This document shows, one piece after another, positions 14,492 through 20,591 of a stretch of DNA of 64,000 bases. Source of the stretch: Bdellovibrio sp. GTDB taxonomy: Bacteria > Bdellovibrionota > Bdellovibrionia > Bdellovibrionales > Bdellovibrionaceae. The notes under the pieces were generated by a model that was not told the origin of the DNA, did not search any database, and saw only the letters and a list, made by a program, of their open reading frames with translations. Location of the stretch: the NCBI GenBank assembly GCA_036677065.1, contig JAKFBS010000004.1, positions 608,001 through 672,000 on the forward strand. The letters run 5' to 3'. Position 1 is the stretch's first letter. Every line of letters starts with the position of its first letter. The position numbers were made by a program, and so were the translations under genes.

Positions 14492-15220
14492 CTAGTAGAT
14501 AATCGCCGTGTTGCCCCAGTCTTCAGTTTTGATCAGGGGCACGCGATGATGTTTCAATCGTTTTAAAACCTCTTCATGGGGATGATTAAATTTGGCCATG
14601 CGTGATTGCACGATGGCCATTTTTATTTGTGGCAGGCCCTTTAAGAGTAAATCGCTCGTGCTGGTGCGGCTGCCGTGATGGCCTAACAGTAAATAATCAA
14701 TTTTGTGTGTTTTAAGCCGATTAACCCAGGTTTTTTCCATCTTCTTAGACGAATCGCCGGGGATTAAAATGTTTTTGTATCTGTACACAAAAGAGCTATC
14801 GTTCTTATTTGAAAAATCACTGGGCTTAAAGACACGCTCTTGGTGTAAGTCATTCGACTTTGCACATAAGGCAATCTTGCGGGTTAAACGCTTTGCGGGA
14901 ATCGACGTGTGATCAAGCTCACTCCAGCAGATTTTCGGAATATATTTAACCAGCATCGAATAATAAGCGTAATGATCTAAATCTGGATGCGATAATCTTA
15001 AAGTGTTTTGTTTGTTTTTGCAGAGCTTTAAAAATAAATTCTGATTTTTTCTCCAGGGGCCGAGTTCGCCGCCAAAATCAAAGTGCCTGCATTCATCAGG
15101 CGTGACGGCAGTGATCCATTGCCCTTGGCCAACGTTCCAGAAAATCACGTATAAATACGATGATTTATTTGCACATAAAGTCGAATGCAGAAATAGCCAA
15201 AAAAATATTAGTTTAGACAT
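14492..15220 (-). CDS. ComEC C-terminal metallo-beta-lactamase-fold domain as a separate ORF
   Basis: FWNVGQG, LSHPDLDHY, LIPGD, GHHGSRTST and FNHPHEEVL motifs. Confidence 0.88.
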   Translation of the reverse strand: MSKLIFFWLFLHSTLCANKSSYLYVIFWNVGQGQWITAVTPDECRHFDFGGELGPWRKNQNLFLKLCKNKQNTLRLSHPDLDHYAYYSMLVKYIPKICWSELDHTSIPAKRLTRKIALCAKSNDLHQERVFKPSDFSNKNDSSFVYRYKNILIPGDSSKKMEKTWVNRLKTHKIDYLLLGHHGSRTSTSDLLLKGLPQIKMAIVQSRMAKFNHPHEEVLKRLKHHRVPLIKTEDWGNTAIIY

Positions 15221-16104
15221 GTCACTGGCTTTCTTGCGAAATAATTTAAAAATAAGTGAAGCGCGATAATTAACACCCAGTTGATAAAAATCATTTTTTC
15301 GCTATCGTAAGGGCGAAAAATCACGGTGAGTTCAAGTTTAGATAAAATCATATTCAAACTAACTATTAAAAAATCGAATATTGAACCTAAAAATGGAAAT
15401 AGAAATACAGCTAAAGCGAGCGGAAATAAAACGTACTCTAAAAATTTAGTGAAAACGGTGGATACTCCGATTGATGCTGGTTGTGGAATTCCGATGAAAT
15501 TAAATGTCGCCAGATATTGAAAATAGAAAATAGAATTTTTAAAAAATGAATTCGCTTTGGCGAAAAAATAACTGATCACACTTAAAGTCAAAGCTGCAAT
15601 CCAGCTCATTTGCAGCGATAAAGAATTGATCCACGCTGGCGAAAGAATTAAACAAATTAAACCCGACACTAAAACCAGGTTTTCGGTTTTCCATTTTAAA
15701 TTTATTTTTTCAATAACTGCTAAAATGAGCAGCGCTATAAAACTGCGCATGATAGGTGGATTGAAATTGCAAACGCCACAGTACAAAAATAAGAGCGAAA
15801 ATGTAGCTACTTTGTTACATAATAAATATAAAATTATTTTTCGCAAAATCATGAGGTGAGATGCCGACACAACAAATAAATGAATTAACCCCGACGCGAT
15901 TAATAAATTCGACTGCGCAGGGTCAGAAAAGTTTTTTCCGCACACTAAAGCTTGTAAGGATTCAAAAGATCTTACATGGTCGGACGCTGCTTCAACACAA
16001 GCTGAATGGAGTTGTGAACAAAATCCGATCAAAAAATCAATAACCGAAAAGCGGATGGTGTGTGATATTAACACTATGTAGATTAAAATATAGACGAAGT
16101 TCAT
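15208..16104 (-). CDS. comEC: ComEC/Rec2 competence membrane domain
   Basis: GLIHLFVVSASHL, NPPIMRS and LSLQMSW motifs; multiple TM helices. Confidence 0.88.
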   Translation of the reverse strand: MNFVYILIYIVLISHTIRFSVIDFLIGFCSQLHSACVEAASDHVRSFESLQALVCGKNFSDPAQSNLLIASGLIHLFVVSASHLMILRKIILYLLCNKVATFSLLFLYCGVCNFNPPIMRSFIALLILAVIEKINLKWKTENLVLVSGLICLILSPAWINSLSLQMSWIAALTLSVISYFFAKANSFFKNSIFYFQYLATFNFIGIPQPASIGVSTVFTKFLEYVLFPLALAVFLFPFLGSIFDFLIVSLNMILSKLELTVIFRPYDSEKMIFINWVLIIALHLFLNYFARKPVTCLN

Positions 16105-16289
16105 GCGTTCTATGCAATTGCAAAGCGCACAAATTTAAGATTTCTGAAAAATTTTTTAAGATTTATTGGCTTTTTTAGAAATGATTAATTTAATCAAATA
16201 CTTAACTGAGGTTGAATTATAAGCAAATCGCTGAAAACACTGATAATCAACGGGTCCAAAGTCCAGAAACATGAGTTAATAACATTTTA

Positions 16290-16298
16290 TGTGGATAA
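16290..16298 (-). promoter_or_regulatory. Perfect DnaA box (TTATCCACA)
   Basis: TGTGGATAA on the + strand, immediately followed by a degenerate copy GTCGGATAA (16299-16307), in the divergent promoter region. Confidence 0.45.
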
Positions 16299-16357
16299 GT
16301 CGGATAACTTTATTGAATTAGGTTCAAGAGTTGAGTTTAATTATATCAGGGGGCGAC

Positions 16358-16798
16358 ATGAGATTTTCACTTCTTATCACTTTACTATTTTTTTCATTTT
16401 TTAGCTGCCAGTCAATGAGCAGGAATTCTAAGTCAACAATTTCGGCGCCTAAAAAAACTGTGTCTACTAAATCGCCAGCGACAAAAGTTGCAACAAAAGT
16501 AGATACAGTTAAGCAACCTGCTGTAAATCCGGCGTTGGGGCAAAAAAGTATTTACGAAGAGTTAACTGGTAAAAAAGGCGTGTCTGCGAAACAAGCACCA
16601 ACTCGTATTTTAGAAATGGCACGTGATGCGAAATGGAAACGTGATTACGTTACCGCGCTTAAAAGATACAACACGATTATAGTTAAATATCCAAAATCAA
16701 AAGAAGTGCGCCAAGCTTATTTAGATAAAGCAGCCTTGTACCGCGAGATGGGCTTATTGCAACAATCTAAATACAATATGGAGAAGGCTAAAAAATAA
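16358..16798 (+). CDS. Predicted lipoprotein with C-terminal TPR (BamD/CpoB-like repeat)
   Basis: ATG at 16358 after a GGGGG SD; lipobox-like FFS-C; TPR segment DYVTALKRYNTIIVKYPKSKEVRQAYL. Confidence 0.7.
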   Translation: MRFSLLITLLFFSFFSCQSMSRNSKSTISAPKKTVSTKSPATKVATKVDTVKQPAVNPALGQKSIYEELTGKKGVSAKQAPTRILEMARDAKWKRDYVTALKRYNTIIVKYPKSKEVRQAYLDKAALYREMGLLQQSKYNMEKAKK

Positions 16799-18357
16799 TG
16801 ATTTGTCGCTTTAGAAAAAGCATCTTTGTAACGGCAGCAGCAATCAGTTTTATTTTTCTTCCAGCCTTGAGCCAGGAAGATCCTGCTGCGCCATCTACGC
16901 CTCCTGCTGCTCCAACAGGTCAAGAGATGCCGGCAAGCCGTCCTAAATATGATATCGAATTAAATAAAGACAGTAGTTCGTTTGTTCCGGATCCAGATTC
17001 GTTAGATCCATTGCCATTAAAAAAAGAATCGTTAAAAGAAGACGATGAACCTGTATTAGATGACATCAAATCGATTCTTAAAACTAAAGCTAAGAAGCCA
17101 AAAGCAGGTGCTGCCAAACCTGGCGATGGTGCGACTGCGGCTCCGGTAAAAAAAGCTAAGAAAAAAGTCGCACGCAAAGCTAAAAAATCTGCGCCGGTTG
17201 TTGATACTTCGAACTTATCGCCAGATGATCCAGATTTGGCTTTAGAGCAAAAATTTAACGATATCTATAATAAGTATAACATCAATCCAACTTCTGACGA
17301 TGTTTGGGGAGCTGCTTCAAGCAAAGCCGCTCAAGTGTACGATGTGCAAAAAGGGGATACGTTATTTACGATCAGCCGTACCCTGTTTGGTGATCCGCAA
17401 TTTTGGCCAAAAATCTGGGCCTTAAACAATGGCGGCATTACAAATCCACATAACATTGCACCCGGAACTAAAATTTATTTCTATCCTGGTGATGGCGGAG
17501 CAGCGCCTTCGATGTCAGTGGGAAGTGAGTCTCCTGAACGTGCGGCATGGGTTGATCCCGATGCGCCAGTTATTCGTGATACGACAACGAAACAAAACAC
17601 CGAATTTAATAAATTAGTTCAAGAAGGTGTTAAGGGTAAAACTGATGTGCAAAATATTCCGCCGAGTTTTCCGCCTTTTTCAGTGAGTGCGAAATATTTT
17701 GCTGCGGCGAAGTCGACAAAATTTTTAATTACTCCAGCCGCTGAAATCGTAGATCGTGATCCGGAAAATCCATTTATTTTGACCTCGTCGATAATCACGA
17801 CTGAATATAAGGTGATGGAAAAAAATGCGAACTCGTTAGTTTGTAAAGATAACCAGTATGTTCCTGCGGTTATTAAAATTGGCAAGAACGCAAAACCAGG
17901 CCGCTACAGTATGTTGGTGCAAGAGAGTTTTAACTTTGGTCAGCTAAAACGCACATACATTTATCGCATTATCGGCGAAGCGGATGTGGGAAGTGATGAA
18001 TCACTTCGTATTTCTCAGTGTATTAAGCCGGTTAATACGGATGTGCTGCTTGTGAGCAGCGAAGATCTTGCTGAAGTAAAACCGCCGAATGAGTTGATTC
18101 CAAATACACGCTCACAAATTATTGAAGGCGTTGAAGTGAATGCCCAACAGTATTATTATGCTCATCAATATGTGATTTTAAACATGAGCCAGTTGCCAGC
18201 GCTTGAAGGTGCTGATTTAAAAGTTTATTCGGCATCAGCTGGTGGCGTTGTCGGAGAAATTCGTATTTTAAAACGCACGGGCACCATGGCTATTGGTTAT
18301 GTGATGAATAACGATGACCTGGTTCAAGTGGGTGATCGCGTGATTATTCCGGAATAG
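16798..18357 (+). CDS. Secreted LysM-domain protein, TsaP-like
   Basis: Signal peptide, Pro/Lys-rich linker and LysM domain YDVQKGDTLFTISRTLFGDPQFWPKIWALN. It sits upstream of dprA, as tsaP-like genes commonly do. Confidence 0.8.
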   Translation: MICRFRKSIFVTAAAISFIFLPALSQEDPAAPSTPPAAPTGQEMPASRPKYDIELNKDSSSFVPDPDSLDPLPLKKESLKEDDEPVLDDIKSILKTKAKKPKAGAAKPGDGATAAPVKKAKKKVARKAKKSAPVVDTSNLSPDDPDLALEQKFNDIYNKYNINPTSDDVWGAASSKAAQVYDVQKGDTLFTISRTLFGDPQFWPKIWALNNGGITNPHNIAPGTKIYFYPGDGGAAPSMSVGSESPERAAWVDPDAPVIRDTTTKQNTEFNKLVQEGVKGKTDVQNIPPSFPPFSVSAKYFAAAKSTKFLITPAAEIVDRDPENPFILTSSIITTEYKVMEKNANSLVCKDNQYVPAVIKIGKNAKPGRYSMLVQESFNFGQLKRTYIYRIIGEADVGSDESLRISQCIKPVNTDVLLVSSEDLAEVKPPNELIPNTRSQIIEGVEVNAQQYYYAHQYVILNMSQLPALEGADLKVYSASAGGVVGEIRILKRTGTMAIGYVMNNDDLVQVGDRVIIPE

Positions 18358-18376: not shown

Positions 18377-19228
18377 ATGAAAAAAGCCGTACTGTTTAAA
18401 GCCCTGCAAAGACATTTAGGATTCCGCAATCCGGATTCTATCTTACAAATCACACCTGACATTATAAATAAACTGGCGCCGCAAGAATTGATCTTGGCTG
18501 AACGTTATTTGCTAAGTCTAAAAGACAAAGGCATTCAGTTTACTTATCCGGGCGATGTGCTTTATCCGGCAAGTTTTCATCAAATGTTAGAGCCGCCGTT
18601 ATTTTTAGAATACGTCGGTGAGCCCGTGTGGATGCATAAACAAATTCTAGCCATTGTGGGCGCACGAAAAATTCATCCCTTTACTGATCGTTGGCTGCGC
18701 TTTGAGATTCCTTTGTTTTTAGAAGCTAGGCCTGATATAGCCATCGCCAGTGGCGGCGCCATCGGTGTTGATCAGTGTGCGCATACGGTGGCGATTAAAT
18801 CAGATCGCCCGACGATCGTGGTTTTGCCGTGTGGTTTAGAGAATTTGTTTCCGAAAAATTTAAACACATTGAAAAAATTAGTTTTGCAAACGGGTGGATG
18901 TTTTTTATCTGAATTTGAGAGTGATCAGAGTGTGCGAAAACATCTTTTCTTTTTTCGAAACCGTTTAATTACCGCTTTAGCGCAAGTCACGATGGTGGCG
19001 CAGGCTGAAAAAAAGAGTGGAAGTTTTCTTACAGTTCATCATGCACTTCAGAATGGACGCACGATGGTGACGCTTCCCGCGCACCCGATGATGTTTGAGT
19101 TCTCGGGAAACCAGCATTTAATGCGTGAAGGGTGTTTTTATGTGCTTACAAACAAGGATTTGCTTAACTTTTGGGAAGCTGAATGTTGGTCTGGTCGGGG
19201 TTTGACACTAGATATAGACCGCATTTAG
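18377..19228 (+). CDS. dprA: DNA-processing protein DprA/Smf (compact form)
   Basis: LAIVGAR, SGGAIGVD, FFFRNRLI and AEKKSGSFLT motifs. Confidence 0.92.
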   Translation: MKKAVLFKALQRHLGFRNPDSILQITPDIINKLAPQELILAERYLLSLKDKGIQFTYPGDVLYPASFHQMLEPPLFLEYVGEPVWMHKQILAIVGARKIHPFTDRWLRFEIPLFLEARPDIAIASGGAIGVDQCAHTVAIKSDRPTIVVLPCGLENLFPKNLNTLKKLVLQTGGCFLSEFESDQSVRKHLFFFRNRLITALAQVTMVAQAEKKSGSFLTVHHALQNGRTMVTLPAHPMMFEFSGNQHLMREGCFYVLTNKDLLNFWEAECWSGRGLTLDIDRI

Positions 19229-19355
19229 TTAAATTGCTTGACCACTGCCACTAGGTCTAGTGATGGCAGTGACTAAGGTCAATATTCGTCAGAAAAGTGA
19301 AATAATCTAAAAAAACCTATTGAGAAAAAAAGAAAGATGCATCTAAAATAATAAT

Positions 19356-19470
19356 AAGGGAGGGGCGATGTGGTCATGGATGACCCTGGTTGTATGGATG
19401 CAGCTACATCGTTCCGTTTTTCTTAAAATTTAAAAATTACAAAGACGAAGTCACTCTTCGTCTTTTTTTT
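19356..19470 (+). ncRNA. Candidate small RNA with two AUGGAU-loop hairpins (CsrA/RsmA-sequestering type)
   Basis: Three-way junction at 19362-19415, sigma70-like TTGAGA-N18-TAAAAT upstream and an intrinsic terminator downstream. The 5' end is estimated from the promoter. Confidence 0.6.
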
Positions 19471-19471
19471 T
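19441..19471 (+). terminator. Rho-independent terminator
   Basis: AAAGACGAAG-TCACT-CTTCGTCTTT followed by a long T run; lies between convergent dprA and lptF. Confidence 0.9.
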
Positions 19472-19493: not shown

Positions 19494-20591
19494 TTACGAT
19501 AATTTCTTCTGAATTTGGTTGGCCGACACGACAGCGAAAATAAAATTCGCCACCCATGGGCCCATGTAAGGTGGCAGTCTTTGGCTGCGTGATAAACCTT
19601 CGAAGGCAATATAAACAATAAAGTACCCAACGATAAAAGCCACCGACACCACAAAGCCTGATGATTTGCCTGACCTACGATCGTTGATGACTCCATAACC
19701 AACGCCCACTAACCCGAAAATCAAGCAGGCAGCGGCTAAGGCGAATCTTTTGTGAAACTCAACAGCGAAGCCGACCTTTTCATTATCTTTGAGTGTAGCG
19801 TCGTTTAAGCGTTCTTGTAACTCGTTATAGTTTAATGAGGGCGGAGACTTTTTACGTTCTTCGAATTTAACCGGATCATTTAATAGAACATCGTAAGAAT
19901 CAAATTCAACCACAGTATGAGCTTGGCCGCGACGATGGATCTGGCCTTTGAATAAACGTAATAGCACGCTATGGCCTGGGTTGTCTAAATCAGGAATGAT
20001 ATGACCTTGCGGTGCAATTATAGTTAAAGGCGAACTTGGATTTTTATCATCGTAGATAAATAAATCCTGCAGTAAGCCTTCTTCTGAGTTTACTTTATTG
20101 GCGTAAACCACCATATCAAAAAAGCCTTCTGAGAAAGTGCCCTCTTTGATGCTGGCAGCGGCTTTGGTGTTACCAAGGTGAGTGATTAATAATTCGAATT
20201 GGCGATTTCCCCAAGGTGCAACATAGAATGCAGTTTGCGCTGAGAGGACACTGACCACTAAAGCAAAGGCTACGGCCGGAGCCAGGATTGTGCCGCCGTG
20301 GTAGCCCGCACCTTTAAGGGCGATAATTTCAGAATCAAGAGAAGCGCGGTTGTAAGTCATTAGAATCGCAAAGAGCAGCGACATCGGTAAGATCATGGGT
20401 AAGAATGAAATACTCATATAACCCATGATGTCTAAAATAAATGAAAATTTAATTCCGTGAACGAGCACGAATTCGGTTAGACGAAGGGCTTGAAACATCA
20501 ATAAGATCGATATAAATACCAATACACCTAGGATAAAGGTGGGAACCATTTCAGAGAGTAAATAAAAAAATACGCGGCGTGATTTCCACAT
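19494..20591 (-). CDS. lptF: LPS export ABC transporter permease, LptF/LptG family
   Basis: LPMSLLFAILMTYNRASLDSEIIALKGAG and EFHKRFALA motifs; 3+3 TM layout around a periplasmic domain. Confidence 0.88.
   Translation of the reverse strand: MWKSRRVFFYLLSEMVPTFILGVLVFISILLMFQALRLTEFVLVHGIKFSFILDIMGYMSISFLPMILPMSLLFAILMTYNRASLDSEIIALKGAGYHGGTILAPAVAFALVVSVLSAQTAFYVAPWGNRQFELLITHLGNTKAAASIKEGTFSEGFFDMVVYANKVNSEEGLLQDLFIYDDKNPSSPLTIIAPQGHIIPDLDNPGHSVLLRLFKGQIHRRGQAHTVVEFDSYDVLLNDPVKFEERKKSPPSLNYNELQERLNDATLKDNEKVGFAVEFHKRFALAAACLIFGLVGVGYGVINDRRSGKSSGFVVSVAFIVGYFIVYIAFEGLSRSQRLPPYMGPWVANFIFAVVSANQIQKKLS

Follow-up and report, generated by a model that had tools for sequence, protein, structure and literature searches.

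The Csr/Rsm small RNAs of the Gammaproteobacteria (CsrB/CsrC, RsmX/RsmY/RsmZ) are stand-alone RNAs that expose ANGGAN hairpin loops in genomes encoding CsrA. ANGGAN is reported as a high-affinity CsrA/RsmE motif in which the N is looped out; its presence matters, its identity does not (PMC4005645). The SELEX core of CsrA is likewise matched by ANGGAN loops (PMC7652899). Outside the Gammaproteobacteria, TwoAYGGAY (RF01731) is presented as a proposed and unvalidated CsrA-binding RNA (PMC4333381; also PMC2864571), in which a shared basal stem carries two GGA hairpins (bioRxiv 10.64898/2026.09.22.753630). In Campylobacter jejuni, a FliW-bearing host, two adjacent GGA hexaloops of the flaA leader, 21 nt apart, bind one dimer and titrate CsrA (PMC4894983). 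The same paper quotes ~18 nt as the optimal intersite distance for one dimer, a distance whose way of measuring may differ from the one used here.

According to a 2020 review, it is undetermined if any bacterium combines FliW and small RNAs in acting on CsrA (PMC7652899), and another review calls the two routes mutually exclusive (PMC7366521); between them, these reviews describe the routes as mutually exclusive or anti-correlated. For Geobacter, a 2026 paper states that no Csr small RNA is known (PMC13407953). The CsrA of Bdellovibrio bacteriovorus represses a GGA-hairpin leader in B. subtilis, and the paper reporting this cites a transposon link that implicates csrA in predation and describes its control as little known (PMC13443453). 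The small RNAs tabulated for B. bacteriovorus (APsRNA1-7, merRNA and the hit-locus sRNA) measure 98-655 nt (and 261 nt), and none of them maps between 1.34 and 3.41 Mb (PMC3627812 Table 2; PMC3818213).

Here we analyse an element of ~66 nt found in a 64,000-nt stretch of a Bdellovibrio genome (hereafter the window; its genome is G000 in our sample). We put at about 0.7 the probability that this element is a minimal CsrA sponge small RNA matched to one dimer, single copy and likely transcribed on its own. Like the known small RNAs of the genus it is intergenic, but it differs from them in size and place, and in seven named complete Bdellovibrio chromosomes it lies at 2.1-2.5 Mb. We found no published description of it in the literature searched, where supplementary lists of intergenic transcripts could include it unnamed.

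As we read it, the element works like a Csr/Rsm sponge, and it belongs to no Rfam family. The Rfam models of CsrB and CsrC, and those of RsmX, RsmY and RsmZ, gave no match at E <= 10 in the window or at the loci of eight named relatives, and Rfam as a whole gave no match near gathering score at the element. Unlike the Csr/Rsm RNAs, it has only two (at most three) sites, set in a three-way junction whose closing stem is followed by a U-tract; it also occurs in a different phylum, coexists with FliW and has a NrdR-like operator upstream. The activating system of the Csr/Rsm class is BarA-UvrY/GacS-GacA, and the sites seen upstream of the element are of a different kind. In shape it is closest to TwoAYGGAY, yet RF01731 (168 positions) had no match in the window's genome at E <= 10. 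Its loops are ANGGAN with N mostly a purine, the commonest loop of the family being AAGGAU; AYGGAY in both loops is true of the window itself, not across the family. Moreover, it is ~66 nt long, single copy and preceded by its own promoter, whereas Pseudomonas TwoAYGGAY elements are multi-copy with flanking repeats. The flaA leader of C. jejuni shares the paired GGA loops and the FliW-bearing host, but it is the leader of a target mRNA; the element described here is a non-coding unit in its own right, has no linkage to flagellar genes and persists where flagellin is lost.

A probable small RNA element between dprA and lptF

In the window, the element lies on the + strand downstream of dprA (18377..19228, + strand; Pfam DNA_processg_A, E 1e-48, and synteny) and faces a convergent permease gene of the lptF/lptG family, here called lptF (19494..20591, - strand; Pfam LptF_LptG, E 5e-81). 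A competence-type gene cluster precedes dprA at 14492-18357, in which a ComEC-like gene spread over two ORFs is followed by a small lipoprotein-like ORF and then by a LysM protein.

The features that an earlier note on this DNA had picked out, namely two promoter hexamers, three stems, two UGGA loops, a 5' GGA and a downstream hairpin, are all present where it had placed them. The promoter-like sequence consists of TTGAGA (-35, 19320..19325) and TAAAAT (-10, 19344..19349), both on the + strand with an 18-nt spacer, and matches the consensus at 10 of 12 positions. Within the window's genome alone such a match is not above chance (3 found, 2.2 expected); its significance comes from the relatives, since 54 of 74 upstream regions have TTG and TANNNT in register, whereas 1000 shuffles gave 2.8 on average and never more than 10. 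From this conserved sigma-70-type promoter, transcription would start at 19356 or 19357 and yield a predicted RNA of ~66 nt (19356..19422, + strand; covariance models R1-R3, see below), probably ending within the U-tract.

The RNA would begin with a single-stranded AAGGGA (19356..19361, followed by a further G), whose GGA at 19359-19361 is possibly a third, weak CsrA site; its A is retained in only 58% when members are weighted by genus, and the stretch is absent in one family (f6). There follow, all on the + strand, the closing stem P1 (19362-19371 with 19406-19415), whose sequence core is invariant and which has the U-tract directly 3' of it, and inside P1 the hairpins P2 (19372..19385, GGA at 19378-19380) and P3 (19388..19405, GGA at 19396-19398), each presenting AUGGAU. 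The two loop GGAs are 18 nt apart, start to start. Both the minimum free energy and the centroid structure computed by ViennaRNA for 19356-19471 are exactly the three-way junction previously drawn; the fold has z = -4.1, and none of 200 shuffles was equally stable. The fold is favoured on the + strand, the core reaching -24.0 kcal/mol there versus -13.2 on the - strand, and the + strand folds better in 70 of 75 members.

The length of the RNA had to be amended. The earlier note had relied on a strong terminator to propose a transcript of ~115 nt. A hairpin (19441-19465) with a U-run (together 19441..19471, + strand) is indeed present, and is terminator-like on the lptF strand too, but it occurs in only 3 of 28 congeneric loci and appears to be a lineage-restricted back-up terminator. 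By contrast, at least five T in 8 nt directly follow P1 in 71 of 74 members. Because this U-tract is found across the family while the downstream hairpin is rare in congeners, we take the conserved RNA to be ~66 nt long; a 115-nt read-through form is possible in the window's genome. P1, which closes the two hairpins, would together with the U-tract set the 3' end by termination or trimming.

Distribution and conserved anatomy

The genus sample comprised 30 dprA loci, window included. The whole element is nearly unchanged in 28 of them while the flanks diverge, and the other two are cut by contig ends, one inside the element and one before it. A covariance model built from 18 congeneric loci (R1) matched 76 of 150 Bdellovibrionales genomes, and a second one built from 54 distinct matches (R2) matched 98 of the 150, in five families: 36/37 genomes of f1 (Bdellovibrionaceae, the window's family), 21/22 of f2, 2/2 of f4, 28/37 of f6 and 11/26 of f12. 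The eight other Bdellovibrionales families in the sample had no R2 match. A third model (R3), run on 40 of the 52 R2-negative genomes, gave weak matches in 13, none of which combined a promoter with two GGA hairpins. Two rows were left out of the counts, L108 (G103, E 0.05), judged to be noise and not refound by R2, and L082, a contig-end duplicate of G065; L012 and L031 are truncated by contig ends. Among the listed matches to a 28-letter pattern of the element, 77 of 80 are titled Bdellovibrio, Pseudobdellovibrio or higher Bdellovibrionota taxa, and there are at least 118 matches in all. One record titled Streptomyces griseus (L177) bears a Bdellovibrio-type element, and its label is likely wrong or its bin mixed. 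In G051 (L066), the promoter and the RNA have the opposite orientation with respect to dprA and lptF; dprA is apparently frameshifted and the assembly fragmented there, and this possible assembly artefact was not used.

Of 120 genomes from other orders, 5 gave weak matches (E 0.002-0.04), which on inspection were plain hairpins or unrelated sequences, except for two long inverted repeats in G257. These repeats (L138:480-640 and L139:460-600) are related to each other and capped by GGA hairpins, and one of them directly follows a tRNA pair; their layout resembles TwoAYGGAY, but RF01731 did not match them at E <= 1. L139 also contains another long inverted repeat, at 176-300. The viral contig set held no pattern match.

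Each carrier has one real copy, the extra R2 matches of some genomes being short and weak. The search for paralogues that the earlier note had suggested found none in the window's genome, where BLAST returned only A/T noise and R1 a single real match. The invariant arms of the element and its movement between loci could be those of an inverted repeat acting as DNA, or of a mobile repeat of the kind that TwoAYGGAY forms in multiple copies in Pseudomonas, but the element is single copy, its arm 7-mers are not over-represented, and the 3' arm of P1 shows only C/T variation opposite a fixed G, which is RNA wobble on one strand; we find such a repeat scarcely credible. A DNA uptake-like repeat was rejected since the arm 7-mers are near expectation, and a divergent SRP RNA since the SRP RNA is elsewhere in the genome.

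Conserved anatomy was assessed on 74 distinct cores from 43 genera. Loop 1 carries GGA in 66 and loop 2 in 65 of them, 58 have both and 73 at least one. The GGA starts are 17-21 nt apart in the family, and 18 or 19 nt apart in 52 of the 58 cores with both. All 22 distinct f1 cores have two ANGGA, with all four bases represented at N. Sixteen cores have no GGA at one or both aligned loop positions, and these include whole genera (g34, g51, g70); among the matches left out of model training, 10 of 23 have only one GGA. The loops are conserved, as a check proposed in the earlier note had called for, while the stems beneath them covary. In the model-fitted alignment, 91.5% of cells pair and two-sided changes occur at 12 of 22 pairs, 11 of them within P2 (all 5 pairs) and P3 (6 of 7). 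The covariation score of this alignment, which is fitted to the model, exceeds that of 500/500 shuffles, but the count of two-sided pairs is not above shuffles in alignment A3 (137/500). Since the alignment leans to the model, we added an alignment-free test: of 72 inner regions, 42 have at least two GGA within hairpin loops, where 2.4 would be expected, and 65 have at least one. With MAFFT and RNAalifold on 34 divergent members, P1 was the only helix recovered, and the two GGAs still align at 90% or more. An enlarged version exists in G118 (L078:1505-1599), where 95 nt contain five GGA, with extra GGA hairpins inside the same P1. All together, we consider it very likely that the element is a real structured functional RNA of order-wide occurrence.

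P1 behaves differently from the other stems. With 96% of its cells paired, it exchanges G-C and G-U on the 3' side only, and its core is invariant across the 43 genera with no two-sided change, more so than the loops. The sponge model leaves this invariant sequence unexplained, and it may point to a protective role or to another partner. Within the 5' arm of P1 there is also a Shine-Dalgarno-like stretch before an AUG, from which a frame is open across the element in 22/22 distinct f1 cores, as would be expected of an mRNA for a small peptide. However, the peptide would be 1 to 64 aa long, with a stop already at codon 2 in several members, and the frame does not persist outside f1; the f1 RNA has no stop inside it, changes at the loop N are non-synonymous and the AUG is paired in P1. 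We rejected a conserved small ORF, and a peptide-coding role for the RNA is highly improbable.

Gene neighbourhood, transcription and a NrdR-type operator

The neighbours of the element differ between families. In f1 and f4, dprA lies upstream and lptF is convergent; in f2 and f12, a gpmA-like (histidine-phosphatase) gene lies downstream on the same strand, at 24 loci and at a distance of ~20 to >600 nt; in f6 the neighbour genes vary. Adjacency to dprA is therefore not required, other families having the RNA elsewhere. At the sequence level the element is a stand-alone unit, with its own promoter, a U-tract 3' end, no conserved ORF and three gene contexts, and these differing contexts argue for a unit that would act in trans.

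One could still see in it a mere 3'-end signal, a terminator or stabilising stem for dprA or lptF with no transcript of its own: in f1 it sits between convergent genes and ends in a U-tract, and lptF, for which there is no conserved terminator besides it, has its stop a few nt from it in Bdellovibrio. The conserved promoter, the placement away from both genes in three families and the internal GGA-loop hairpins, which a terminator would not need, make this very unlikely. The RNA could also bind CsrA and yet serve mainly something other than titration: CsrA may stabilise or chaperone it while its invariant P1 arms contact another partner (a protein, or mRNA start regions), or CsrA binding may tune termination at P1 and so attenuate the gpmA-like gene of f2 and f12. 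The absence of two-sided change in the P1 core, the resemblance of its 5' arm to a Shine-Dalgarno sequence with AUG, the same-strand gpmA-like gene and the low sponge capacity of two or three sites all speak for such a role. Against it, the next gene is convergent in f1 and f4 and varied in f6, the distance to the gpmA-like gene is far from constant, and no Hfq was found in the window's genome; we regard it as unlikely.

Expression was looked for in assembled RNA-seq contigs without strand at one locus (L054, G098; 8 runs of 5 studies). Deep contigs of three studies stop at 1564, 1566 and 1568, the predicted +1 being 1566-1567, so that in 3 of 8 runs they end within 2 nt of it; three other runs stop at 1554, 1597 and 1601 (12-35 nt off) and two span the site. 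These contig ends are a weak hint of transcription, and could instead mark where the mRNA of convergent lptF, with its stop 11 nt away, has its 3' end.

Upstream of the promoter, a conserved box with an A-tract (19297..19315, + strand) is found in 18 of 22 f1 promoters and in 0 of 52 in other families, and is unique in the window's genome at <=1 mismatch; it is possibly UP-element-like or a second regulator site. Farther upstream lies a 14-bp palindrome, CACTA-N4-TAGTG (19249..19262, strandless), centred at about -100 from the predicted +1, which we take to match the NrdR box consensus. Of 59 distinct f1 upstream regions, 54 have this strong box with a score of at least 9/10, versus 1 of 60 in f2, f6 and f12, and CTA-N4-TAG is invariant in 54/54 f1 sites. 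Its spacing to the RNA is fixed: it lies 117-120 nt from the P1 anchor in 51 cases and a helical turn farther, at 129-130 nt, in 3. Relative to the dprA stop, by contrast, its position varies from -12 to +50. A weaker box (19217..19230, strandless), 32 bp upstream of the strong one and overlapping the dprA stop, would complete a tandem operator: over the 54 family loci, which as kin are not independent, the offset of -32 has the top score, with a mean of 5.6/10 versus 2.6 +/- 0.6 elsewhere.

The same palindrome occurs upstream of nrdA in 3 of 6 genomes examined (G000, G003 and G098; loci G000:C2:350733, L317 and L322), and these three genomes have only 3-4 exact sites each. The companion box at nrdA scores low (6/10 at -32 in G000) or was not seen. 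For G110 and G039, the one exact palindrome is that at the RNA, and G156 has none exact at the RNA or at nrdA. In G000, which has nrdR, exact palindromes are no more numerous than for other spacings and some lie within coding repeats; a clustering near dnaA in a weight-matrix scan was rejected, there being only 4 exact sites.

NrdR is described as a sensor of dATP and ATP that binds a pair of palindromes separated by three turns, with conserved G-C pairs at a spacing of nine bases (PMC9110341). Unlike typical NrdR sites, the boxes at the RNA do not overlap the promoter, the strong one ending 57 bp upstream of the -35 hexamer and clear of the RNA polymerase site. Since they lie off the promoter, their effect could be activation by bending, a block to read-through from dprA, or nothing for the RNA.

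CsrA, FliW and the predicted role of the RNA

The window's genome has csrA, whose absence the earlier note had named as refuting its reading, in the order flgK-flgL-csrA-fliW, and its CsrA has a C-terminal extension with N55, the residue linked to FliW binding (PMC13407953). Among 151 sampled genomes, csrA was found in 143 and fliW in 133; among 99 carriers of the RNA, csrA was found in 98 and both genes in 93. The RNA-binding core residues of CsrA are conserved in 13 aligned proteins (2 more were not extracted). The C-terminal FliW-binding segment has diverged in the five aligned proteins that come from genomes with csrA but no detected fliW (G113, G124, G170, G176, G180). The sole carrier without csrA, G067, has flagellins and is without flgL and fliW as well, which suggests an assembly gap.

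Five genomes of three genera, 95-100% complete (G109, G113, G124, G161 and G138), have no flagellin and no fliW that we could find, and have kept csrA together with the RNA, whose presence therefore goes with CsrA and not with the flagellum. Of these carriers, G138 has both loops, three genomes of genus g52 have one at the aligned position, and G161 has neither. csrA without detected fliW was seen in G170, G176 and G180 too.

Such losses bear on whether the partner is CsrA at all. A real small RNA bound by another RNA-binding protein, its GGA loops being coincidental or an ancestral trace, would agree with the loss of one loop in several genera with canonical CsrA, and with the many csrA-positive genomes in which no RNA was matched (45 of 143). 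Such a partner would leave without reason the ANGGAN loops with their free N and dimer-matched spacing, the expansion to extra GGA hairpins in G118, and the erosion of both loops in G161, whose CsrA score is the lowest of all carriers; we judge it distinctly improbable. Co-loss with csrA is uninformative here, since the 7 of 8 csrA-negative genomes that are without the RNA come from families where it is mostly undetected. CsrA is the favoured partner, and from its sequence and predicted fold the RNA probably binds it. The sponge function proposed in the earlier note is supported, with amendments for RNA length and the presence of FliW: the spacing of 18 nt (17-21 in the family) fits two loops matched to one dimer, and a sponge is the most likely role.

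A scan of 109 intergenic GGA clusters in the window's genome found only 7 with at least two hairpin-loop GGAs: the element itself, the csrA start region, two unassigned sites, and the leaders of a flagellin (G000:C11:39112-39200, - strand), flgK (first gene of the csrA-fliW operon; G000:C1:684220-684273, + strand) and divIVA (G000:C1:629719-629803, - strand). Each of these leaders shows GGA in two or three hairpin loops. On these predicted folds, the three leaders are candidate CsrA targets, which would include autoregulation and a cell-division gene.

A sequence of events may then be proposed. By analogy with Csr/Rsm structures, the two ANGGAN loops would fill both RNA sites of one CsrA dimer; with CsrA bound, its block on target mRNAs would be lifted, flagellin, flgK and divIVA being among the transcripts predicted to be freed. 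The RNA, which co-occurs with FliW, would act beside it and cover the non-flagellar part of the CsrA regulon. In f1, the tandem operator may, if read by NrdR, tie transcription of the RNA to dNTP or replication status. A bolder reading, to which we give less than even odds, is that in the Bdellovibrionales a one-dimer sponge runs parallel to FliW and that, with the f1 promoter wired to the dATP/ATP sensor NrdR, the state of DNA replication governs how active CsrA is and how far flagellin, flgK and divIVA are translated when the predator switches between attack and growth phase.

If this is true, the element would be the first dedicated Csr small RNA in a FliW-bearing bacterium, and the question of how FliW and small RNAs combine would become directly testable in a culturable model predator. 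The element would also offer a very small natural Csr scaffold, with natural experiments in the lineages without flagella. Finally, as the attack phase is non-replicating and the growth phase replicating, it would be a candidate link from replication state to the life-cycle switch of the predator.
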